The notes under the pieces are model-generated. The model saw only the letters and a list, made by a program, of their open reading frames with translations, searched no databases and was not told where the DNA came from. DNA of 63,326 bases from an uncultured Clostridia bacterium (GTDB taxonomy: Bacteria > Bacillota > Clostridia > TANB77 > CAG-508): assembly GCA_947588945.1 (NCBI GenBank), contig CANPZY010000005.1:1-63326 (forward strand). The letters are read 5' to 3'. The position numbers and the translations under genes were made by a program. Position 1 is the first letter of the stretch. Each line of letters starts with the position of its first letter. Shown in pieces: positions 1,293-63,326 of this stretch.

Positions 1293-2186
1293 ATGGAAGA
1301 GAATAATTTAATAGTTCAAAACGAGTTATCAAATGAAGATATAAAGAATTTAATATATACAGTAAGAGGAAAACAAGTTATGTTGGATAGTGATGTAGCA
1401 ATGTTATATCATTGTGAGACTAAATATGTAAATCGTGTAGTAAAAAGGAATATTGAGAGATTTCCAGAAGATTTTTGTTTTCAATTAAATGAAAAAGAAT
1501 TTGAAGTTTTAAGGTGCCAATTTGTCACCTTAAACGGAAATGGAAGAGGACAACATAGAAAATATTTGCCTTATGTATTTACTGAACAAGGTATAGCAAT
1601 GTTATCAGCCTTACTAAAAAGTGATGTTGCAGTAAGTGTTAGTGTAAATATCATGAAAGCCTTTATAGAAATGAGAAAATTTATATCTTTAAATGGACAA
1701 GTATTTGAAAGATTAACAAATATGGAATATAAATTACTAGAACATAATAAAAAATTCGATAAAGTTTTCAATCAGCTACAGCTAGAAGATAATATAAAAC
1801 AGAGAATATTCTTTGATGGTCAAATATGGGATAGCTATAGTGTAATTGTAGATATTATAAAAAAAGCAAATAGCAAGATTTTAATAATAGATAATTATAT
1901 AGATGACAGCATTTTAAAAATGTTAGCTAAAAAGAAAAATGGTGTGGAAGTAGTTATTCTAACATCAGATAAAAGCAATATTGAAAATTTAGATATTAAA
2001 AAATTTAATAAAGAATATCCTGTACTAAAAGTAGCCAAAACAAATAAATTTCATGATAGATTCATTGTAATAGATAATAAAGAGATGTATCATTTAGGAG
2101 CTTCTATAAAGGATTTAGGAAAAAAATGCTTTGCAATCAATAGGATTGAAGATATGGAAATTATAGAAAAGATTATTAATTTATAA
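1293..2186 (+). CDS. ORF6N (KilA-N-related) domain protein with a C-terminal PLD-like HxR(x4)D segment
   Basis: N-terminus VRGKQVMLDSDVAMLYHCETKYVNRVVKRNIERFPEDFCFQL is typical of the ORF6N domain. The C-terminus has HDRFIVID ... GASIKDLGKK, resembling an HKD-type motif. Confidence 0.75.
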   Translation: MEENNLIVQNELSNEDIKNLIYTVRGKQVMLDSDVAMLYHCETKYVNRVVKRNIERFPEDFCFQLNEKEFEVLRCQFVTLNGNGRGQHRKYLPYVFTEQGIAMLSALLKSDVAVSVSVNIMKAFIEMRKFISLNGQVFERLTNMEYKLLEHNKKFDKVFNQLQLEDNIKQRIFFDGQIWDSYSVIVDIIKKANSKILIIDNYIDDSILKMLAKKKNGVEVVILTSDKSNIENLDIKKFNKEYPVLKVAKTNKFHDRFIVIDNKEMYHLGASIKDLGKKCFAINRIEDMEIIEKIINL

Positions 2187-2473
2187 AAATACTCATTATT
2201 TTTTATTAATAAAATTTTGTTTTGCTCTAAAATGAAATGAAAATTTCATTCCTGATAAACAACAGATAAAGAGATTGGCTTTGAATTATATGATTGCAAA
2301 AATAAAGATGAGTGTTTATAGAAAGAATAGACAATAAAAATATTGAAATATAAGCAGTTTTATGATATACTTTTTACAATTAGCAAATAAGCTAATTAAT
2401 TTTTATAATCTCCTTTGGGAGTTAAACACGAAGAAACACTGGCAACACAATAATTATTGGAGGAGGAATCAAC

Positions 2474-3130
2474 ATGAAAGAAAGAATTAAAAGTACAATG
2501 AGGTTTTACCTTTTAGCAACACAACTGAAATATAAAATCAGAAGTGGCTGGGATGAAACACATTGGAACGTGAGTAAAGAAAGAATTGAAAGTATTGCTG
2601 AACACATCTATGGAACGTGCATACTGGCATTAAGTATCGACTCTGAATTTGAAACACATTTAGATATCGGTAAAGTAATAAAAATGCTGGTTCTTCACGA
2701 ATTAGGTGAAGTTGTAATAGGAGATATTACTCCTTTTGATAATATCACTCCAGAAGAAAAAATGGAAAAAGAACATGCAGCAATTAAGGAGGTTCTTGGA
2801 GACTTAATTAAGAAAGAAGAATATTTTGCATTATTACTGGAATTTGATGAAAAGAAAACAAAAGAGGCAATTTATGCTTATCACTGTGATAAATTAGATG
2901 CCGACATACAGGCAAAGGTTTATCAGGATATGGGATGTCAAAAATCCTTAGATATGCAAGAGAATAATGTTGTTTTCAAAAGTAAAAAAGTTCAGCAAAT
3001 GGTGCAAGATGGTGCTAAAACAGCATTTGACATTTGGTATGAATGGGACAAGTCATTATATGTAGATGACGAAAAATTTTCTGCTATTCTTGATTATATT
3101 AAAGAAATCAATACTCAGTCGGGCTTTTAA
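2474..3130 (+). CDS. HD-domain phosphohydrolase, YfbR-like 5'-deoxynucleotidase family
   Basis: SIAEHIYG ... LVLHELGEVVIGDITP ... AYHCDKLDADIQ matches the YfbR/HDDC2 layout. The HD dyad reads HE here. Confidence 0.75.
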   Translation: MKERIKSTMRFYLLATQLKYKIRSGWDETHWNVSKERIESIAEHIYGTCILALSIDSEFETHLDIGKVIKMLVLHELGEVVIGDITPFDNITPEEKMEKEHAAIKEVLGDLIKKEEYFALLLEFDEKKTKEAIYAYHCDKLDADIQAKVYQDMGCQKSLDMQENNVVFKSKKVQQMVQDGAKTAFDIWYEWDKSLYVDDEKFSAILDYIKEINTQSGF

Positions 3131-3179
3131 TGTAACTTGTTTTTGAAAAATAAAAAAAGATTACATCTAAAACAAATAA

Positions 3180-3265
3180 TTGTATTTTATGTAAAGTCAT
3201 GTTATAATAAAAACAGATGGTAAGTTTTTAATGCCGTCCGAAACTTCGGAGGCATTAGTCTCCGA
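3180..3265 (+). promoter_or_regulatory. promoter (TTGTAT-17-TATAAT with extended TG) plus a leader with two mutually exclusive hairpins
   Basis: tgttataat at 3200-3208. Hairpin taatgcc-g-tccga aact tcgga-g-ggcatta spans 3229-3257. The alternative pairing is tcggag (3246-3251) with ctccga (3260-3265). Confidence 0.4.
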
Positions 3266-3300
3266 TAAATAGACAAGATGATATTTAAGGAGGCTTTATC

Positions 3301-4341
3301 ATGAACATTGAAAAGAAACGGATTGAAGCTTGGAACACTGGAAATGGTTCTATAGGACACATCACGCTGGACAAATTAGCTATTCCAGAAACTGTAAAGG
3401 TAACTTTGCTCGGGGAACCTATTATTCCTGAGTCTTTCAACTGCTATGGTCATCCAAATTTTACAGAAGAACAGGAAATGCTCTATATGTTTAAGGAGCA
3501 AGAACTCAAAAGGCAGAACGGTGGTAAGTATACTCCATTGAAAGCAGAAATTATTTATGAGGAAAGAATTTTTGATGTACCGAGAAGCACATTTGATACT
3601 GTCAGAGGTATCCAGAACTCTCTGCTTAGTCTTTCTGACTTAAATGAAATGTTGCAAAATAGGAGAATATTTTGCAAGGCTCATGAGGATGTACCACTGA
3701 ATGAATTCATGCTTTTCGGTTGCTTTTGGCTCGACCAGTTTGGTCAAGTCATGTCAGTTGAAAAAACGGCAAAAGGTAAGCTGAAAACGAACGGAGATGT
3801 TGAGGATTATGATGCCTTTAGAAGAAACAACAGTGAAGATTTCACTTTAACCTCTGGAGGATATGACATTCCCACTCATGGCTCAGCTTGCCCTTGTTGT
3901 GGCAAAACGTTCACAATTGATGATGTTAAGAATAACCCCTGTGTATATATCAAGGGTAAGTTCTATCATGACAGTTGTTGGCGTAACTACAGAAGGCTTA
4001 CCGAAGTTGACAAGTTTACTCGCAGAATGGTGGGCCTTATCTATAAGGACACTGAATATCAGTTTGAGTTGTTACCAAATGGCTATTGCAATCAGGACTG
4101 TTGTTCTCATATTCCATGGTTTTTATTCCATACTGTTGACGGTGATATCATAATGGGCTGGAGAAAGAATGTCATATCTATTGAATGGCAAGAAAACTAT
4201 AAGCTTTTTGATATGAGCGAACTTTTCGGCACAGAAAATGTTACCAAGTGGAAAGAAGATGGAAAACGCGGTATTCACGCTTGGGGTGAAAAGAAGGCTT
4301 ACGAATACCTTAAAAAAGTATTTGAAGCTGTAAATCTGTAG
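3301..4341 (+). CDS. hypothetical Cys-rich protein (CPCCGKTF ... CWRNY ... CNQDCCSH), no family recognised
   Basis: 346-codon ORF with RBS aaggagg 7 nt upstream. GC is clearly above the local background. Confidence 0.6.
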   Translation: MNIEKKRIEAWNTGNGSIGHITLDKLAIPETVKVTLLGEPIIPESFNCYGHPNFTEEQEMLYMFKEQELKRQNGGKYTPLKAEIIYEERIFDVPRSTFDTVRGIQNSLLSLSDLNEMLQNRRIFCKAHEDVPLNEFMLFGCFWLDQFGQVMSVEKTAKGKLKTNGDVEDYDAFRRNNSEDFTLTSGGYDIPTHGSACPCCGKTFTIDDVKNNPCVYIKGKFYHDSCWRNYRRLTEVDKFTRRMVGLIYKDTEYQFELLPNGYCNQDCCSHIPWFLFHTVDGDIIMGWRKNVISIEWQENYKLFDMSELFGTENVTKWKEDGKRGIHAWGEKKAYEYLKKVFEAVNL

Positions 4342-6502: not shown

Positions 6503-7267
6503 ATGGAAGGAAAAAAGACAAATAAAAAAGGAAAACATGCAAAAAAAGATAATAAATTAATAAATATAATTCTATTTGTGCTAATTTGTATATTCTTATA
6601 TTCGGGATTTAATGTTACAATGTGGCTTATTAGTGATAGGAAAACTAAGGAATTAGAAACTGGGTTATATGTTAATGTGGTAACAGAAGATGAATCAAAT
6701 TCTGAAGATATAAAAATAGATTTTTCTAAATTAAAGGAAATAAATCCGGATGTAATAGGGTGGATTAAGATTGAAAATACATATATTAATTATCCGATTT
6801 TACAGGGAAAAAGTGATGATTATTATTTAAAAAAAGATATTTATCAAAATTATAGTCTTTCAGGAAGCATTTTCGTAGATAGTAAAACTAATTCAAATTT
6901 TAATGATGACAATACTGTAATATATGGACATAACATGAAAAATCAAAGAATGTTTGCAGATCTTCATAAAATAAATAATGGCGAATTAGGAAATGAAGTA
7001 AAAGTTAACATTTATACAGAAAATGCAGAGATGACTTATAAAGTATTTTCTGTGCATGTAGAGGAGCCAAGTCTAGATTTAATAATAAAAAATTTTTCTA
7101 ATGTTAATGAAAAAATGGATTATATAAATAATGCTTTTCAAAAGAGTAATGTTAATTTTAATGCTGATTATTTAAATACAGAATGTAAAATAATTACTCT
7201 TATGACTTGTGACAATAATAACAAAAGAAGGGTAGTTGTAAATGCCGTAAAATGTGATAATATATAA
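6503..7267 (+). CDS. srtB: class B sortase
   Basis: N-terminal membrane anchor, NPDVIGWIKIENTYINYPILQG, catalytic His (VIYGHNM), TLMTCD Cys motif and a downstream Arg (KRRVVV). Confidence 0.85.
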   Translation: MEGKKTNKKGKHAKKDNKLINIILFVLICIFLYSGFNVTMWLISDRKTKELETGLYVNVVTEDESNSEDIKIDFSKLKEINPDVIGWIKIENTYINYPILQGKSDDYYLKKDIYQNYSLSGSIFVDSKTNSNFNDDNTVIYGHNMKNQRMFADLHKINNGELGNEVKVNIYTENAEMTYKVFSVHVEEPSLDLIIKNFSNVNEKMDYINNAFQKSNVNFNADYLNTECKIITLMTCDNNNKRRVVVNAVKCDNI

Positions 7268-10885: not shown

Positions 10886-14116
<3,231 letters not shown>

Positions 14117-17599: not shown

Positions 17600-17960
17600 T
17601 TTTCAGAATTTTAGTTATGAAATCAAATTATTAGAAAATTATTTTTTATTTAATTAATTAAAAAGATTAATAAAAAATAAATATATATAAAATATAGCAA
17701 AATAAAGCTAATTATAGAAGTAAAATAACTATAAAAATTATTACAAAATCGTAAAGAAAGTCGAGTATAAAATCTTGCAAAATCGTTGAGATAAATGGAT
17801 TGCAAGAGTTTATACTTTTTTATTAATCTTTTTACTTAATAAAATATATAGAAGTAAAATATTATAAAGTATTGACTTAATACTTTAAAAATAATAAAAT
17901 TAATATAAATAATAAATATAAAAAATGTAAATAATAAGAAAAGAAGGAGAAAAGCGAAAG
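17600..17960 (+). promoter_or_regulatory. conserved upstream module of pilin-like paralog 1 (18-bp inverted repeats, terminator-like hairpin, TTGACT-17-TAAAAT promoter, RBS)
   Basis: Near-identical to 19262-19573 and 61625-61980. IR at 17660-17677 / 17816-17833. Hairpin at 17773-17807. The -35 is at 17872-17877 and the -10 at 17895-17900. Confidence 0.7.
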
Positions 17961-19151
17961 ATGAGAAAAGTAAATTATAAGGAAATGGGAATCACATTAA
18001 TAGCGCTAGTAGTAACAATTATAATATTGCTAATTTTAGCAGGAGTAACACTATCAACAGCATTAAGCCAAAATGGATTATTTCAAAGAGCAAAGATAGC
18101 AGGAGAAAATTATAAAAGAGCAGAAGCAGATGAAACAGAGAAATTAGGAGAAGTAGAGAAAACAATAGACGAATTAGCAGGAGGAAAAGTAGCAGATAGG
18201 ACAGGATTAAAAATAGGAGATACGGTAAACTATACTTATGATAATGCAGACAACTATGAATTAGAAGGAAAAAATAGTGGATATGGAGAATATGTTAAAA
18301 ATGAAGATGGAACATATAAATTAGATACAGAAAAGAAACAATCAATTGCACAAGTAAGGGATGCAACATGGCAGGTACTAAGCATAAATGATGATGGAAG
18401 TGTAGATTTAGTATGTACGAGTATAGCAGAAGATGGGGCAGACTATTTCAATCAAATGATGTCAGGTTTAGATATGAGTGAAGGAAATAAACATGGAGGA
18501 GTAGCATTTGGAGGAGCGATAGGATATACAAATGGAGTATATTATTTAAATGATATATGTGCAAGACAGTATAGTAATAATTCATTAGGAGTAACAGCAA
18601 GGAATATAAAAATAGAAGATATAGAAAAGCATCTAAATGATTCTGGGAGAGCAACAGTACAACAACTTATAGAGGTAGAAGGAACGAAAGAATATACAGG
18701 AGAAAATGTATATTATCCAAAACTATATGCATATGAAAATGGTTCAGAAATAGATGAAAAAAAATTAACAACAAATGGAATCGGACCTAGTGAAACCGAA
18801 GTATCGAGTGATTCTAGCTTCCAAATACCGATAAGTCATAGTAAAGAGGAAGAAGGATATGGAAAAGCAGGGATAAAACTAGCAGTTAATGGTAATTTTA
18901 TTCAATTGGTTGAATATGATGGAGTATATTTTGATGATAATAGGTTGGATGATTTGCTTTTTAGTATGAATAGTGGATTTTGGGTTGCGTCTCGTTTCGC
19001 TTTTGGTAAAACGCCTGATGATAAGGCGAAATTTGGATTGGATTGTGTCCTAGGTAATGTGTTGTCGGGTCAGCCTATGTTTGATTCTATTGGTTGTATA
19101 GATAGGGTTTTGCGGTTTTTTTGTATGCCCGTTTGTTTCTCTTGGCTCTAG
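17961..19151 (+). CDS. pilin-like protein paralog 1 (prepilin-type N-terminal helix), C-terminus disrupted by a frameshift at a T7 run
   Basis: MRKVNYKEMG/ITLIALVVTIIILLILAGV is shared with the two paralogs. The conserved C-terminal V[RC]P[VF]VSL motif lies in the +1 frame and ends at 19200. Confidence 0.7.
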   Translation: MRKVNYKEMGITLIALVVTIIILLILAGVTLSTALSQNGLFQRAKIAGENYKRAEADETEKLGEVEKTIDELAGGKVADRTGLKIGDTVNYTYDNADNYELEGKNSGYGEYVKNEDGTYKLDTEKKQSIAQVRDATWQVLSINDDGSVDLVCTSIAEDGADYFNQMMSGLDMSEGNKHGGVAFGGAIGYTNGVYYLNDICARQYSNNSLGVTARNIKIEDIEKHLNDSGRATVQQLIEVEGTKEYTGENVYYPKLYAYENGSEIDEKKLTTNGIGPSETEVSSDSSFQIPISHSKEEEGYGKAGIKLAVNGNFIQLVEYDGVYFDDNRLDDLLFSMNSGFWVASRFAFGKTPDDKAKFGLDCVLGNVLSGQPMFDSIGCIDRVLRFFCMPVCFSWL

Positions 19152-19261
19152 TATCCAACTCGTTGAATGTGGTGATGGATCATGGGAAATAACAAAATGA
19201 TTATAAGTAGTAGCTTGTAACGATAAAAGTATGGAATCTCTTTAGATTCTAGGAAAGTTAA

Positions 19262-19573
19262 AAATATTATTAATTAAAAAGATTAATAAAAAATAAATAT
19301 ATATAAAATATAGCAAAATAAAGCTAATTATAGAAGTAAAATAAATATAAAAATTATTACAAAATCGTAAAGAAAGTTAAGCATAAACTCTTGCAAAATC
19401 ATTGAGATAAAAGGATTGCAAGAGTTTATATTTTTTTATTAATCTTTTTACTTAATAAAACATATAGAAGTAAAGTATCATAAAGTATTGACTTAATACT
19501 TTATAAATAATAAAATTAATATAAATGATAAATATAAAAAGCAAATAATAAGAAAAGAAGGAGAAAGCGAAAG
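19262..19573 (+). promoter_or_regulatory. conserved upstream module of pilin-like paralog 2
   Basis: IR at 19276-19293 / 19432-19449. Hairpin at 19385-19427. The -35 is at 19488-19493 and the -10 at 19511-19516. Confidence 0.7.
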
Positions 19574-20707
19574 ATGAGGAAAGTAAATTATAAGGAAAAA
19601 GGAATCACATTAATAGCATTAGTAGTAACAATCATAATATTGTTAATATTAGCAGGAGTAACGCTAACAACAGCATTGAGCCAAAATGGTTTATTTCAAA
19701 GAGCAAAGATAGCAGGAGAAAATTATAAAAAAGCAGAGGCAGATGAGACAGAGAAATTAGGAGAAGTAGAAAAAGAGATAGATAAAATAGTAAATGGAGA
19801 AACTCCACCAGACCCACCATCAAGTGGAATAGGAAGTAGTGACATAGCAGAAGATTTAAAAGAATATCAAGGAAAATATGTAGATATAGGGTTGGATACA
19901 AATGATGATAAACAAGTAAATGATTGGGAAATATTTTATGTAAATGAAGATAGAATATTTTTGATAGCAGCAGATTATGTACCAGTAGAAAATTTAAAAA
20001 AATGGGGAGTAATAGATGGAACATTAAAAAGTAATGGATTCATAGAATATTCTAGTAGCAGTAAATATAGTGTAGGTTGGAGCACGCCTACAACGTTTTT
20101 AAATGAAGGCTTAGCAGATTTAAACTTGGTAATGCATAATGGATATTACTTAAAAGGCCTTACGAGTGCTAGTGATTATAACTCAATAGCAGTATCACAC
20201 TTATTAAATAAAACAGCATGGGAAGGAGTAAAAAATGCAGCGGGTAAGAAGACAAGTATAGATTTTGTAATCGGAGGACCAACATTAGAGATGTGGTGTG
20301 CAGCATGGAATAAAGCTGTAGCTGAAGATGAAACCCTTAAGCAAATTCAAGCTGATGATGTGGGTGCGAGTGGATATTATTTGGGATGTGAAGCGACGAG
20401 CCTGGAGCAAAAGTTTGGATTGTGTGTAAATGGTACGGAATATTCTAATCCAAGTTCAAATGAAATTGAGAAGTACAAGGCTTTTTTTCCTCATACGGCT
20501 ATTTGGCGAGGTTGCTACGGATATTGGTTAGCGTCTCCATCGGCTGAGAAACCTGAGAACTTGTTAAGTGTTTACTTTGGAGGCCTTATAAGAAGCTGGT
20601 TGTATAATAACCACGTTTTGGGCGTGCGTCCCGTAGTTTCTCTAGTATCTGGTGTCCGAATAGAAGAAAGGGCTGATGTGAAGAACGTTTACGATTTAGA
20701 AGAGTAG
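19574..20707 (+). CDS. pilin-like protein paralog 2 with a lectin-like C-terminal domain (YWLASPSAE ... LGVRPVVSL)
   Basis: Conserved N-terminal module. The central DWEIFYVNEDRIFLIAADYVP block and the C-terminal motif are shared with 61981-63117. Confidence 0.8.
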   Translation: MRKVNYKEKGITLIALVVTIIILLILAGVTLTTALSQNGLFQRAKIAGENYKKAEADETEKLGEVEKEIDKIVNGETPPDPPSSGIGSSDIAEDLKEYQGKYVDIGLDTNDDKQVNDWEIFYVNEDRIFLIAADYVPVENLKKWGVIDGTLKSNGFIEYSSSSKYSVGWSTPTTFLNEGLADLNLVMHNGYYLKGLTSASDYNSIAVSHLLNKTAWEGVKNAAGKKTSIDFVIGGPTLEMWCAAWNKAVAEDETLKQIQADDVGASGYYLGCEATSLEQKFGLCVNGTEYSNPSSNEIEKYKAFFPHTAIWRGCYGYWLASPSAEKPENLLSVYFGGLIRSWLYNNHVLGVRPVVSLVSGVRIEERADVKNVYDLEE

Positions 20708-20839
20708 GAGTTAAGGTTGATTAAGTTGCGTACTGCTGGGCCTCGCGTCCAGCCTCGCTCCGATGTATAACGTAATTTTTTAATTTTATAGATTATGTAT
20801 TGTAGAGGAAACTGATATTTTTATAATATTAAAATGGGA

Positions 20840-21078: not shown

Positions 21079-22506
21079 ATGGATGAAAGGCTTTTAAGTC
21101 TTGTACCAAAGCGCTTCCGATGTCCCTATTGTGGAGAATGGCACGAGTGGAAACTTGGGTATAGGTTAGAATTTTATGATTCGTTTGACTATCAAGCTAA
21201 ATTAGAATGTTCTAACGCACCATATGGTTGTAACGAAGGCGATTATAGAATTTATTTCCGTAATGGCTACTGTTACTATTCCACTGTGAAAATGTGCAAA
21301 AGGGCAAATCAATCAATTAGTGGAAAGATTCCAATTTCTTCTATAATTGAAAGTACAAATGCTCCAACTGTCACTTTTGAAGTACCGTTTACTGCGGATT
21401 GTGATGTGGGAAGCTACGAATGCTCAAGTTGCATGTACAGAAGAAAATGTCTTTGTGTCAAGTTGGGTGACGAAGGTGATAAACGCAACATGAAAATCAC
21501 ATTCGGATTTGAATTTGATCAATCACAATACAATCAATTTTCAAAAACTGCAACCTTAGCACAAAAGGAAAAAGAACTGCAAGAGCGCGAACGGGCTATT
21601 GATAGCAAGGAACAGGCCTTAAAAGAGCGCGAACAGACTATTGACAGCAAAGAACTTGCTTTAAAAGAGCGAGAAGATGCTGTTGCTAGTAAAAAACAAG
21701 TTTCTAGGCAGTCACAGGTAAAAGAAAATAAGGAGGATACAGCTATGGCAAAAAACATTTTTAACGTAAACATGGAGTTTGGTCCCAACAAGGACGAGAA
21801 CATTACAAGTACCCTTATGGGCGTTGCTGTCAAGAACGGCGACAACTGGCGGATTTATGACAAGAAGAAGAAGGAAATCACTGATGTCGGCGACATTCAG
21901 CTCGGCAATCTGCCTATCTTCATTCTGCCCACTACCCAGCTCAGCGAGGGCGATCTTATCAAGGACAACGGAGAGTACTATTTTGTAACTAAGGTTGCGA
22001 CGACCAAGACACCGACTCAGACCTTGTCTGCGAGAACTGGCGAGATGAAGAACGTCGTTCCCATCAAGAACATTCTGGGCTTCAGTTGCTACTCGAAGGT
22101 TATTGCCCTCAGCGATTCACTCAACCTGGGAGATGACTTGGATGTAGAAAAGCTGGCCATTATGTCGGCAATGTGCGGTCAGACTGGCGAGGACGGAGGC
22201 CAGATGAATCAGCTCCTGCCTTTGTTCCTTTTCAAGGATGGGATTGGAGGAGATGATGACATGACGAAGCTGTTGCTTATGTCTTCCATGATGACCTCTG
22301 AAGAAGACGGAGGCCAGATGAATCAGCTCCTTCCTCTGTTGCTTTTCAAGGATAAGCTTGGAGGCGATGATGACACGATGAAGCTGTTGCTCATGTCGTC
22401 CATGATGGGCGGCAATATGGCAGGTTCTAACAACCCTGTTATGGGTTATCTGATGATTGATACACTTCTGGGAAAGAAAGAACATTCTCAGAAGGCCGAT
22501 GAATAA
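21079..22506 (+). CDS. chimeric hypothetical protein: Cys-rich N-domain, coiled-coil repeats, then a high-GC C-terminal module with an internal duplication
   Basis: RBS aggaggt. CPYCGEW ... CSSCMYRRKC. DSKEQALKEREQTIDSKELALKERE repeats. An internal aaggagg RBS precedes the in-frame ATG at 21745. C-terminal duplicated units EDGGQMNQLLPL[FL]LFKD.[IL]GGDDD.(T)KLLLMSSMM. Confidence 0.6.
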   Translation: MDERLLSLVPKRFRCPYCGEWHEWKLGYRLEFYDSFDYQAKLECSNAPYGCNEGDYRIYFRNGYCYYSTVKMCKRANQSISGKIPISSIIESTNAPTVTFEVPFTADCDVGSYECSSCMYRRKCLCVKLGDEGDKRNMKITFGFEFDQSQYNQFSKTATLAQKEKELQERERAIDSKEQALKEREQTIDSKELALKEREDAVASKKQVSRQSQVKENKEDTAMAKNIFNVNMEFGPNKDENITSTLMGVAVKNGDNWRIYDKKKKEITDVGDIQLGNLPIFILPTTQLSEGDLIKDNGEYYFVTKVATTKTPTQTLSARTGEMKNVVPIKNILGFSCYSKVIALSDSLNLGDDLDVEKLAIMSAMCGQTGEDGGQMNQLLPLFLFKDGIGGDDDMTKLLLMSSMMTSEEDGGQMNQLLPLLLFKDKLGGDDDTMKLLLMSSMMGGNMAGSNNPVMGYLMIDTLLGKKEHSQKADE

Positions 22507-38558: not shown

Positions 38559-39293
38559 ATGTATTTAAATGATATTCATATATTATATTATTTTTTTATA
38601 GGGCTTCTAGGATTTGCAGTAGGACAAGTAATGAATTGGGTTAATATTAGATTAGAAGACCATGAAAAAGTGTTTGGCAAGGAATTTTTTAAAAATTATA
38701 TTCCACATATGAAAATTAATTGTAGTTTAATTTTTTCAACAGCAATAATCTATATAGTATTGTTATATATTTATGGATGGCAAATAAAACTAATTGAATA
38801 TTTAATACTTACTCCATTAATTATATCTGCTTTTGTGATAGATTATAGAAAGCAGATAATACCAAATAGATTAACATTAACTATATTAGAAGTTGGAATT
38901 ATATTTACATTTATTTTAGGATTATCAAATATTAATGATTTGTTAAATGGACTATTAGGATTAATTACAGGTGGTGGAATATTCTTAATAATAACATTAA
39001 TTGGTGGACTTATAGCAGGAAAAGAAGCAATGGGCTTTGGTGATGTAAAGCTTATGGGTGCATTAGGATTAATGTTTGGATTTACTAACATAATATTGAT
39101 TGCAGTACTATCTTTTTTAATAGGGGCAATAATTAGTATAATATTATTATTAACAAAAAAGAAAAAAACAAACGAATACATACCATTTGGACCATTTATT
39201 GTTATAGGAACTTTTATAGTAATGTTAGTTCCACATAATTGGCTATTATTTATATTGTTAAAGATATTTACATTAGGAATGTTTAAAGTATAA
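38559..39293 (+). CDS. type IV prepilin peptidase (A24 family), lacking the N-terminal methyltransferase/zinc domain
   Basis: Polytopic membrane protein with IPNRLTL and the aspartyl motif GFGDVKLMGALGLMFG. Confidence 0.8.
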   Translation: MYLNDIHILYYFFIGLLGFAVGQVMNWVNIRLEDHEKVFGKEFFKNYIPHMKINCSLIFSTAIIYIVLLYIYGWQIKLIEYLILTPLIISAFVIDYRKQIIPNRLTLTILEVGIIFTFILGLSNINDLLNGLLGLITGGGIFLIITLIGGLIAGKEAMGFGDVKLMGALGLMFGFTNIILIAVLSFLIGAIISIILLLTKKKKTNEYIPFGPFIVIGTFIVMLVPHNWLLFILLKIFTLGMFKV

Positions 39294-61624: not shown

Positions 61625-61980
61625 TGAATTTTAGTTATAAAATAAAATCATTAGAAAATTTATTTTTTATTTAATTAATTTAAAAGATTAATAAAAAATA
61701 AATATAACTAAAATATAGCAAAATAAAGTCAATTATAGAATAAAAAGAAATATAAAAATTATTACAAAAATGTAAAGAAAATTAATTATAAACTCTTGCA
61801 AAATCATTGATATAAATGAATTGCAAGAGTTTATACTTTTTTATTAATCTTTTAACTTAATAAAACATATAGAAGTAAAGTATTATAAAGTATTGACTTA
61901 ATACTTTATAAATAATAAAATTAATATAAATAATAAATATAAAAAAAGCAAATAATAAAAAAGAAGGAGAAAAGCGAAAG
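61625..61980 (+). promoter_or_regulatory. conserved upstream module of pilin-like paralog 3
   Basis: IR at 61681-61698 / 61837-61854 with a compensatory outer base pair. Hairpin around 61789-61832. The -35 is at 61893-61898 and the -10 at 61916-61921. Confidence 0.7.
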
Positions 61981-63117
61981 ATGAGAAAAGTAAATTATAA
62001 GGAAAAAGGAATCACATTAATAGCGCTAGTAGTAACAATTATAATATTGTTAATTTTAGCAGGAGTAACACTAACAACAGCATTGAGCCAAAATGGATTA
62101 TTTCAAAGAGCAAAGATAGTAGTAGAAAAATATAAAGAAGCAGAGGCAGATGAGGCAGAAAAATTAGGAGAAGTGGAAAAGGAGCTAGATAAAATAATAG
62201 ATGGAGAAACACCACCAGATCCACCAAAAAAACCAGATCCAGTTGAGGTAACAGAAAAAAATCTAAAAGAATTTCAAGGAAAATATGTAGATATAGGGTT
62301 AGATACAAATGATAATAAAGAAGTGGATGATTGGGAAATATTTTATGTAAATGAAGGTAGAATATTTTTAATAGCTGTGGACTATGTTCCAGTATCCCAA
62401 TTAAGCACATGGGGAGTAATGAAAGCATTAAACGATACTGGGTTTCAACGATGTAGAGATGATTATGAATATAATGTAAATTGGAATATGCCTGAAACCT
62501 TTTTGGAAGAAGGCTTAGCAGATTTAAACTTGGTAAAGCATACAACCTATGACTTAAAGGACAATAGGAATAAAGTGAACTCAATAGCAGTATCACACTT
62601 ACTAAATACGACAGCATGGAATGGGGTAAAAACAGCAGCAAGTGCAGATAAACAACAATATATAGATTTTGTAATCGGAGGATCAACATTAGAGATGTGG
62701 TGTGAGGCATGGAATGTAGCTGTAGATGGAGATGAGACCCTTAAACGAATTCGTGCTGATGGTAGTGGTACGAGTGGATATTATGTGGGATGTGAAGCGA
62801 CAAACCATGAGAAAGAGGAGGAATTGTATGTAAATGGTTCGATAGATTCTGCGGTAGAATTAACTAAACTTGATAAGTACGAGACATTTTTCCCTCATAC
62901 GGCTCAATATGAAAGTTGCGACGGATATTGGTTGGCGTCTCCTTCCGCTGAAGTGAACCCTGGATGCTTGATGTACGTGAGGTTTGACGGGGGCGTTAAG
63001 TTGTATGCCACTACCAGTGGCTGGTACTTGGGTGTGCGACCGGTGGTTTCTCTAGAATCTGGAGTCAGAATTGTAAAGAGGGAAGGTGCGAATAAGATAT
63101 ACGACGTGATTATGTAG
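61981..63117 (+). CDS. pilin-like protein paralog 3 with a lectin-like C-terminal domain
   Basis: Same N-terminal 65 aa and central blocks as 19574-20707. C-terminus is DGYWLASPSAE ... YLGVRPVVSLESGVRI. Confidence 0.8.
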   Translation: MRKVNYKEKGITLIALVVTIIILLILAGVTLTTALSQNGLFQRAKIVVEKYKEAEADEAEKLGEVEKELDKIIDGETPPDPPKKPDPVEVTEKNLKEFQGKYVDIGLDTNDNKEVDDWEIFYVNEGRIFLIAVDYVPVSQLSTWGVMKALNDTGFQRCRDDYEYNVNWNMPETFLEEGLADLNLVKHTTYDLKDNRNKVNSIAVSHLLNTTAWNGVKTAASADKQQYIDFVIGGSTLEMWCEAWNVAVDGDETLKRIRADGSGTSGYYVGCEATNHEKEEELYVNGSIDSAVELTKLDKYETFFPHTAQYESCDGYWLASPSAEVNPGCLMYVRFDGGVKLYATTSGWYLGVRPVVSLESGVRIVKREGANKIYDVIM

Positions 63118-63326
63118 TATTTAGGATAGGGTTGAATGGGTGCTCCTGGGCCCCATGTCCAGTCTCGGTCCGATGTGTGAAGCTATTTTTTTATTCCATT
63201 GTAAGAGAAAATTACAAGTGAATTTAAATTTCAAGATAGTGTATTATATAGTGGTTCTTTGTCAAGTTAGTTGACATTAAAAATAATATGTGATAAAATA
63301 TCCTTCGTAGAATTACGGAGGATAAA

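Follow-up and report, generated by a model that had tools for sequence, protein, structure and literature searches.

Diversity-generating retroelements (DGRs) rewrite part of a target gene: reverse transcription of the template repeat (TR) transcript incorporates random bases wherever the template has an adenine, and the resulting cDNA takes the place of the variable region (VR). As every template A is mutable, the scaffold codons of a TR avoid A, and its variable codons are AAC or AAT (AAY). Here, we analyze a 63,326-nt contig from an uncultured Clostridia bacterium, the whole of which is called the window (27% GC, with 42% A on the + strand) and whose + strand carries three pilin-like paralogs, p1, p2, and p3. 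Near the 3' end of each paralog lies an A-poor, GC-rich block of ~115 to 160 nt, which we read, with a probability of about 0.82, as the VR of a DGR target family. Judged from sequence, the window itself appears to hold only the footprint of such a system, its machinery lying off the contig or being absent, and the three copies were probably shaped by a DGR template in the past.

The closest described systems each share some of these features. As in Bordetella phage BPP-1 (PMC3240598), relatives of the window show A-specific TR-to-VR mismatches and a GC-rich inverted repeat 3' of the VR. Where BPP-1, with its Mtd target, avd-TR-brt order, and IMH with hairpin/cruciform, has a co-oriented reverse transcriptase (RT), that of the relatives faces the target, accessory gene, avd, and TR in convergent orientation; the hairpin has two parts and a non-GRNA loop and is 90 nt away from the VR, not 4 to 34 bp; and the target is DUF6273-like instead of having the C-type lectin fold of Mtd. 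Faecalibacterium phage DGR targets carry their VR at the C terminus of DUF6273 (PMC11792537), and, as in prophages Lelie, CP11, Roos, and Pioen of that study, the VR here is at the C-terminal end of a DUF6273-type domain and the hosts are gut Firmicutes. Whereas those targets are phage borne with the DGR adjoining, the window proteins are chromosomal, multicopy, and pilin anchored, with no cassette on the contig. The relatives also resemble DGRs with a MutS-like accessory gene (MSL; architecture D of Wu et al. 2018, PMC5758913, which includes the Legionella DGR) in having a small MutS_I-like gene together with avd. That survey documents MutS-like accessory genes, remote targets, in-frame VR indels, and AAC-rich templates whose adenines occupy the first two codon positions; pilin targets are unmentioned there, and the window lacks both the MutS_I-like gene and avd.

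Bacteroides type V pilus adhesin DGRs (bioRxiv 10.1101/2024.11.15.621889) likewise diversify the adhesive or tip part of a pilus-associated protein in a gut commensal; they differ from the present case in phylum, in variable domain, and in pilus system, the N terminus here having a type IV-like methylation motif. A G-type pilin domain is listed among the scarce VR-bearing domains (PMC11661182). The DGR target family is of a known kind; less familiar are the pilin-like anchor, an RT in convergent orientation accompanied by a MutS-like gene, the distal bipartite hairpin, the probable upstream invertons, and a series of decaying VRs.

The compositional switch that drew attention to these genes in the initial annotation is reproduced by recounting. 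The first 120 nt of p3 have 28.3% GC (~28% had been given), positions 62969 to 63088 have 50.8% (~50% had been given), and A makes up 16.7% of p1 positions 18960 to 19151 (~15% had been given). In the sliding-window check proposed there, run on the three genes, the frequency of A at third codon positions (A3) falls from ~0.70 to between 0.07 and 0.27, and GC at third positions (GC3) rises from between ~0.1 and 0.2 to between 0.4 and 0.63. The switch in p3 had been placed across positions 62690 to 63190. An abrupt block is found, but only at 62928 to 63046; it does not start at 62690, as the stretch from 62690 to 62927 is only mildly shifted (GC, 0.33 to 0.50), and immediately 3' of the block A is back at 0.37. 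The C-terminal domain as a whole is mildly GC enriched (~0.35 to 0.46 versus 0.27).

For codons with an A-ending synonym, the share ending in A drops from 0.69 to 0.10 in p3 (Fisher P = 5e-10), from 0.66 to 0.28 in p2 (P = 9e-5), and from 0.76 to 0.16 in p1 (P = 1e-10), with G-ending codons in places where the genome would favor A-ending ones. As the fall is seen at synonymous sites, amino acid content cannot account for it. Compared with all 119-nt windows of the contig, the p3 core ranks in the lowest 0.07% for A and in the top 0.006% for GC, and the contig has only two regions with A at or below 0.20, namely, 18950 to 19194 in p1 and 62885 to 63078 in p3.

The homologues of p1 to p3 form a family in metagenome-assembled genomes (MAGs) of uncultured Clostridia, with several paralogs per genome. 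The isolate names of these MAGs start with 'Lapin', which suggests rabbit gut. Their protein alignment has a fixed frame, C.GYWLASPSA...LM.V...G.V...GVRPVV.L, interspersed with stretches in which N, Y, S, D, G, and C abound. Some of the homologous loci (designated by L numbers) carry DGRs. In L018, L019, and L020, the TR and VR are 116 nt long and differ at 20 positions, 19 of which are TR adenines; this TR encodes WLASPSA-NNSNN-LM-N-V-NYN-G-N-V-NNNNYNNNNY-GVCPV, the target with its VR adjoins, and a 297-amino-acid (aa) RT is convergent to the TR/VR pair. In L021 to L023, the repeats are 138 nt long, all mismatches (23/23) are at TR adenines, and the VR sequence varies across the three samples; a p1-type pilin-like protein serves as the target, with bAvd and a MutS_I-like accessory gene between target and TR. 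RT, bAvd, and a MutS-like accessory gene occur together at both L019 and L021. The relatives' RTs, which match Pfam RVT_1, belong to a single large clade; accessory genes of the bAvd and MutS_I families accompany them, and the cassette is directly downstream of the target.

The window blocks correspond to these repeats. The TR/VR span in the DGR loci, from WLASPS to GV[RC]PV, is that of the A-poor blocks, and the p3 block ends abruptly at GVRPV. A common frame, WLASPS...GV[RC]PVV, links p2 and p3 to the L019 VR; p1 is homologous to the L021 target; and the p2 coding frame from W to VV (20525 to 20638) is 114 nt long, equal to the L019 VR and its aligned TR stretch. TRs of relatives have an A3 of 0.08 to 0.10, and fresh VRs have an A3 of 0.08 or less with C at third positions (C3) at 0.36 to 0.55. 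DGR-like adenine mutagenesis by an RT encoded elsewhere had been one of the explanations initially offered. For the gene family this is borne out by the relatives' TR/VR pairs with mismatches almost exclusively at TR adenines, together with RT, bAvd, and the MutS-like gene. An active process in the window is not, given the lack of machinery on the contig, the codons of p2, and the frameshift of p1, as described below. In the DGR of L018 to L020, the MutS-like gene and Avd are apparently fused into a 134-aa ORF (L019 6079 to 6483) that joins accessory residues 2 to 100 to Avd residues 32 to 117; the A-only TR/VR pattern is still clean there.

A template without A in its scaffold and with AAY at its variable codons accounts for an A-free island in a genome of A-ending codons. 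An A-avoiding template copied into a VR would leave nearly no A at third positions, and in a genome with 27% GC and A-ending codons such a copy would stand out as an abrupt, A-free island of G-, C-, and T-ending codons. The bipartite hairpin 90 nt downstream would aid cDNA homing. The drifted third positions of p2, the frameshift of p1, and the eroded hairpins would be signs of decay. The features of the window are collected in Table 1.

Table 1. Features of the pilin-like paralogs and associated elements in the window
Feature	Coordinates	Strand	Remarks
p3, 378 aa	61981..63117	+	ORF; pilin-like N-terminal anchor, linker, and DUF6273-like C-terminal domain of ~284 aa
p2, 377 aa	19574..20707	+	Architecture of p3; 64% identical to p3
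p1	17961..19200	+	Middle domain differs from that of p2/p3 (p1 type); ORF as called stops at 19151
p3 VR homolog	62928..63046	+	WLASPS...GVRPV; A = 0.14, GC = 0.56, A3 = 0.07; L019 TR/VR span
p2 VR homolog, partly ameliorated	20524..20636	+	A3 = 0.21
p1 VR homolog	18979..19135 (approximate)	+	A-poor (A = 0.17), T-rich; interrupted by frameshift
p3 hairpin, eroded	63137..63169	+	Within motif 63130-63176
p2 hairpin	20727..20759	+	Inner 7-bp stem intact, outer stem down to 3 bp; within motif 20715-20766
Short conserved 3'-flank element (AGATAGTGTATTATATAGTG)	63234..63253	+	19/20 match to L012 1712-1731
Inverted repeats upstream of p3	61670..61865		29-nt repeats around a 138-nt segment (61699-61836)
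Inverted repeats upstream of p1	17647-17846 (segment, 17678-17815)		Equivalent element
Inverted repeats upstream of p2	19267-19458 (segment, 19294-19431)		Equivalent element
Type IV prepilin leader peptidase (Peptidase_A24)	38559..39293	+	Pfam E = 1.5e-18

A GC-rich motif had been noted just after the stop codons of p2 and p3. This motif, GGTTGA...CTGGGCC.C..GTCCAG.CTCG.TCCGATGT, indeed occurs exactly twice, once after each of these genes. It forms a bipartite hairpin in which a small internal loop separates an outer stem of 5 to 6 bp from an inner 7-bp stem topped by a 4- to 5-nt loop, and in p2 and p3 alike the hairpin starts 90 nt beyond the VR end. Across eight homologous loci, a small sample, 88.5% of the cells at paired positions hold standard pairs, compared to 28 to 42% when the partners are slid. 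Three pairs show compensatory changes, as in CTGG/CCAG to CTAG/CTAG and GCGTG/CACGC to CCGTG/CACGG. Folding is strong in L005, L006, L008, L012, and L019, DGR-linked loci among them (-10 to -13 kcal/mol; z, -2 to -4) and weak in the window, at -6.5 kcal/mol for p2 and -5.8 kcal/mol for p3 (z of ~0 for p3), where pairs of the outer stem are lost. Neither an Rfam nor a tRNA scan of the window returned a match, so the motif is neither a known RNA family nor a tRNA-derived att site. An intrinsic terminator was also considered and rejected, the T-run being inconsistent across homologues and a terminator scan finding none there. The hairpin core had no match in viral contigs. GC-rich hairpins 3' of VRs, with GRNA loops and 4 to 34 bp from the VR, promote DGR homing (PMC3240598), and by analogy the present element may be this clade's version of the DNA hairpin that aids cDNA homing. 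The conserved post-stop motif stands as a conserved hairpin of the type found 3' of DGR VRs; as a recombination site, the role first suggested, it does not, in view of compensatory pairs in place of a crossover core.

Farther downstream, 45 to 65 nt past the hairpin, is a short 3'-flank element of the form ATAGAT.G.GTATTATATAG. By eye, similar elements follow p2 (20770 to 20800) and family members in L003, L005, and L024 (~11190 to 11225), with or without a DGR. The near-perfect match of the p3 tail to L012 (Table 1) was considered as a hint of a downstream cassette and was downgraded, because similar elements follow family members that lack a DGR. At the very end of the contig (63271 to 63326) are a promoter-like site close to consensus (TTGACA-17-TAAAAT with TG) and the ribosome-binding site GGAGG (63317 to 63321), which imply that a gene begins just past the end, in the place that the DGR cassette occupies in relatives.

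The three copies are in different states. Fresh VRs have pyrimidines at all 16 third bases of AAY codons, and the VRs of L005 and L007 to L009 keep 15 to 16 of these 16 bases; in p2, only 6/16 are kept, and 9/16 are pyrimidines. Compared with the L019 TR, p2 has 22/74 mismatches at non-A template positions. The VR of p1 is broken at a T7 run (19116 to 19122), beyond which the +1 frame restores ...FVCPFVSLGSSIQLVECGDGSWEITK with a stop at 19200; the run could be a pseudogene lesion, a site of slipped-strand switching, or an assembly error. A p1-type gene in L002 (1333 to 2581) is frameshifted too, at another place. Together, the codon pattern of p2 and the frameshift of p1 imply orphaned, decaying VRs rather than an active process. 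On this sequence evidence, it is quite probable to very probable that p1, with its frameshift, and p2, in which third positions have drifted and A is coming back, are no longer rewritten. In p3, 13 of the 22 variable-position codons end in a pyrimidine, A3 is 0.07, and the 3' boundary of the VR departs from the clade's CCCGTAG. That p3 is still a live target of an off-contig cassette is a tentative proposition, with the balance somewhat against it. Relatives with no DGR within 10 kb (L001, L004, L011, and L024) have a C3 of 0.05 to 0.10 and T at third positions of ~0.5, a drift to T- and A-ending codons.

Cassettes decay as well. L012 holds a broken DGR at 1836 to 3421, comprising a MutS-like gene, Avd, half a TR, and an opposite-strand RT. 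The TR remnant is the 5' half, and TR adenines account for 6 of its 7 mismatches; the RT is truncated after motif 4, has no YxDD, and extends in frame into the TR remnant. In L008, a 200-nt stretch (1333 to 1534) homologous to the L019 post-TR region lies beside a target that lacks Avd, TR, and RT, with FtsZ next; the stretch resembles a scar left by the deletion of a cassette.

Several observations weigh against reading the blocks as VRs. With the clade's RT, Avd, and MSL as tblastn queries, no RT, Avd, or MutS-like gene was found on the 63-kb contig (E > 1), and a Pfam scan of 49 contig ORFs, taken from a list of ORFs of at least 90 aa with those inside or largely overlapping longer ORFs excluded, gave no match (0/49) to RVT_1, bAvd, or MutS_I. 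A scan for TR-compatible sequence, in which each base is the VR base or A, returned only the VRs from the window and the fetched loci; patterns of the fixed TR scaffold had no match in viral contigs, and a 22-mer of the p3 scaffold had none in Joint Genome Institute (JGI) metagenomes. The RT/Avd pair and template repeat on which the DGR explanation was to be checked are accordingly missing from the contig, and no TR turned up in the viral or JGI collections. Further, many non-A positions separate p2 and p3 from the known TRs, and no two of the three VRs are equal in length. Neither templating from AAY codons nor AT-biased decay explains why G reaches a frequency of 0.40 at third positions in p3; the hairpin departs from the published form in its 90-nt distance and its 4- to 5-nt non-GRNA loop; and the protein database yielded no relative more than 64% identical to the window proteins.

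Another explanation is that a cassette (MutS-like gene, Avd, TR, and convergent RT) just past the contig end or elsewhere in the genome acts in trans on p3, and perhaps on p2 as well, as a live DGR target. The p3 A3 of 0.07 in a genome with an A3 of ~0.7 argues for recent templating, the 3' boundary CGACCGGTGG is common to p3 and the fresh-looking VR of L008, and remote targets are documented (PMC5758913). In addition, the relatives' cassette is directly downstream of the target, and the contig stops 209 nt past the p3 stop at the promoter-like site and GGAGG. The unequal VR lengths count against this explanation; however, VR indels in multiples of 3 beside AAC repeats are on record (PMC5758913), so the 6-nt difference between p2 and p3, raised initially as an argument against a shared template, is weaker than thought. 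Also against it are the failure to find TR-compatible sequence in the window, the fetched loci, or the viral and JGI collections, the 9 of 22 variable-position codons in p3 that end in G or A, which templating by AAC or AAT cannot yield, the broken outer stem of the hairpin, and a VR that assembled cleanly with no fragmenting. We consider a live p3 served by such a cassette rather unlikely.

The remaining explanations dispense with a retroelement and fare much worse. Mosaic horizontal acquisition, in which a GC-richer C-terminal module recombined into AT-rich genes, would fit the mild GC enrichment of the whole domain, and a neighboring ORF (21079 to 22506) with a 680-nt high-GC3 stretch is clearly of other origin or under other constraint. 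Yet the sharp block is only ~119 nt long and coincides with the TR span, it recurs in the paralogs and in many genomes, the avoidance is specific to A at synonymous sites, and the relatives' TRs match the block; this TR/VR evidence refutes the proposal, and we regard it as very improbable. Even less credence attaches to a pilE/pilS-style or shufflon-like exchange of cassettes using the GC-rich motif as the recombination site. The genes are pilin-like and multicopy, their 5' modules are identical, their 3' motif is conserved, and DNA inversion does occur upstream of them, but a BLAST search of the three 3' ends against the window returned only the paralogs, with no template, and the proposal is unsupported because silent or partial 3' cassettes were not found there. 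No recombinase family matched among the Pfam-scanned ORFs of the contig, the motif is a hairpin with compensatory changes and no conserved crossover core, and variation among relatives fits the A-site pattern of a DGR. Finally, the segment is rich in G, W, V, A, R, and P residues, as an ordinary composition or translational effect of a Gly/Trp/Val/Arg/Pro-rich fold would have it; such an effect is next to negligible as an explanation, since the shift is strongest at synonymous third positions (0.69 to 0.10 in p3) and stops abruptly within the same domain.

The protein to which the putative VR belongs resembles type IV pilins and pseudopilins at its N terminus, which reads K-G-ITLIALVVTIIILLILAG, has a hydrophobic helix, and keeps the Gly at -1; a prepilin peptidase gene is present in the window (Table 1), and its product is, by sequence, a candidate enzyme for processing these N termini. 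Unlike those pilins, the paralogs score below the N_methyl (PF07963) cutoff (18.7 to 18.8 bits versus 21.2), have Ala instead of the conserved Glu at +5, and carry a very large C-terminal domain that is not pilin-like. A profile search against the PDB matched the pilin-like N terminus alone, weakly, to PilA, MshA, and geopilin. In L007, L008, L009, L013, and L015, the pilin-like signal and helix at the 5' end of the target are out of frame with the gene body (for example, ...LAGVTLTIALRRKWLI* in place of ...ALGENGLF...), which suggests a 1-nt indel just past the transmembrane helix; this break could reflect phase variation, pseudogenes, or sequencing error. The contig also carries a sortase gene at 6503 to 7267.

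For the C-terminal domain of p3 (residues 95 to 378), an AF2 model built on 91 sequences reached a pLDDT of 96.3, replacing an earlier full-length model on a shallow alignment (pLDDT, 52) whose fold search was uninformative. The sole significant Foldseek match of this domain in the PDB is 9qa6 (E = 4.4e-5; probability, 1.00; TMq, 0.38), the IgA peptidase of Thomasclavelia ramosa, which is described as having a DUF6273 domain at its N terminus (PMC12402451). Among viral structures, the best matches are DUF6273 phage proteins (E = 2e-3; probabilities, 0.93 and 0.87), the TM-scores of the DUF6273 matches being modest. By Pfam, the last 95 aa of p3 score 13.6 bits against DUF6273 (PF19789; E = 0.06), below the gathering threshold of 23.5, full-length p2 and p3 have no DUF6273 match, and homologues P0013 and P0033 reach 21.6 to 21.9 bits. 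The resemblance to DUF6273 that the initial annotation proposed therefore holds by structure and not by Pfam. Its other proposal, a C-type-lectin-like or DUF1566 fold, finds no support: the Foldseek matches are nonsignificant (Legionella Lcl C-terminal domain, E = 1.0; CD23 lectin, E = 4.6), and p2 and p3 have no FGE-sulfatase, lectin, or DUF1566 match in Pfam. Viral relatives of the protein were not found in the search, and a phage origin of the paralogs was rejected as unsupported. On the strength of the model, the protein is predicted to consist of a pilin-like membrane or pilus anchor and a DUF6273-type ligand-binding domain, with the VR as the C-terminal part of that domain. Homologues P0061, P0072, and P0099 are ~80% identical to p3 over the pilin-like N-terminal 90 residues. 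P0061 and P0072, which share this N terminus, have an FGE-sulfatase domain at the C terminus above the Pfam threshold. As FGE-sulfatase is a classic DGR-target fold, these sister proteins imply that one anchor is combined with different variable domains.

Gut bacteria have invertible promoter switches (invertons), among them the cwpV and flagellar switches of Clostridioides difficile. Each window paralog is preceded by a module of ~310 nt, 93% identical between copies, in which inverted repeats of 27 to 31 nt enclose a 138-nt segment with a promoter-like site on its minus strand. As in the C. difficile switches, inverted repeats (27 to 38 nt) lie around a short segment (~130 to 138 nt) upstream of a surface-protein gene, and a relative shows the opposite orientation: the segment of L006 (6008 to 6200) is inverted compared to that of L004 (3556 to 3757), L003 (same MAG), L001, and the window. 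Unlike in known invertons, no invertase was identified, none of the Pfam-scanned window ORFs matching a recombinase family, and no single genome was seen with both orientations. From its sequence, the segment is probably an invertible promoter that would act as an on/off switch.

These elements might be combined into two systems stacked on chromosomal, pilin-anchored DUF6273 adhesins, in which an invertible on/off switch upstream of each paralog joins a trans-acting DGR (convergent RT and MutS-like accessory gene) that rewrites the ligand-binding tip, guided by the hairpin; p3 would be a live target, remote or adjacent, and p1 and p2 would be in successive stages of decay that followed the loss of contact with the template. 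As a whole, we hold this arrangement to be unlikely.

The neighboring ORF at 21079 to 22506, which follows p2, deserves separate mention. It encodes 475 aa, and its 3' 680 nt (21829 to 22506) have a GC content of ~0.5, a GC3 of 0.60 to 0.74, and an A3 of 0.04 to 0.14, an anomaly that exceeds those of the VRs in size and whose length excludes a VR. The product is a hypothetical protein with no Pfam family, widespread and highly conserved in gut Clostridia MAGs (60 to 78% identity), with a Cys-rich N terminus, a coiled coil, and the repeated motif GGQMNQLLPL.LFKD..GGDDD. Housekeeping genes on the contig include those for EF-P, RuvX, ArgS, ThrS, and SpoIVA.

When A-ending codons suddenly give out for ~120 nt in an AT-rich genome, this change can be used as the fingerprint of a DGR VR, even where the assembly holds neither an RT nor a template. 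The present case points to pilin-anchored DUF6273 proteins as a class of DGR targets in gut Clostridia. The decay series, with fresh, drifting, and frameshifted VRs and the broken cassettes of L012 and L008, could be used to gauge the frequency with which targets become orphaned and the rate at which their signature is lost. If the upstream repeats are true invertons, these bacteria would combine on/off switching of a surface protein with hypermutation of its tip, which would matter for recognition of the host and of phages in the gut.

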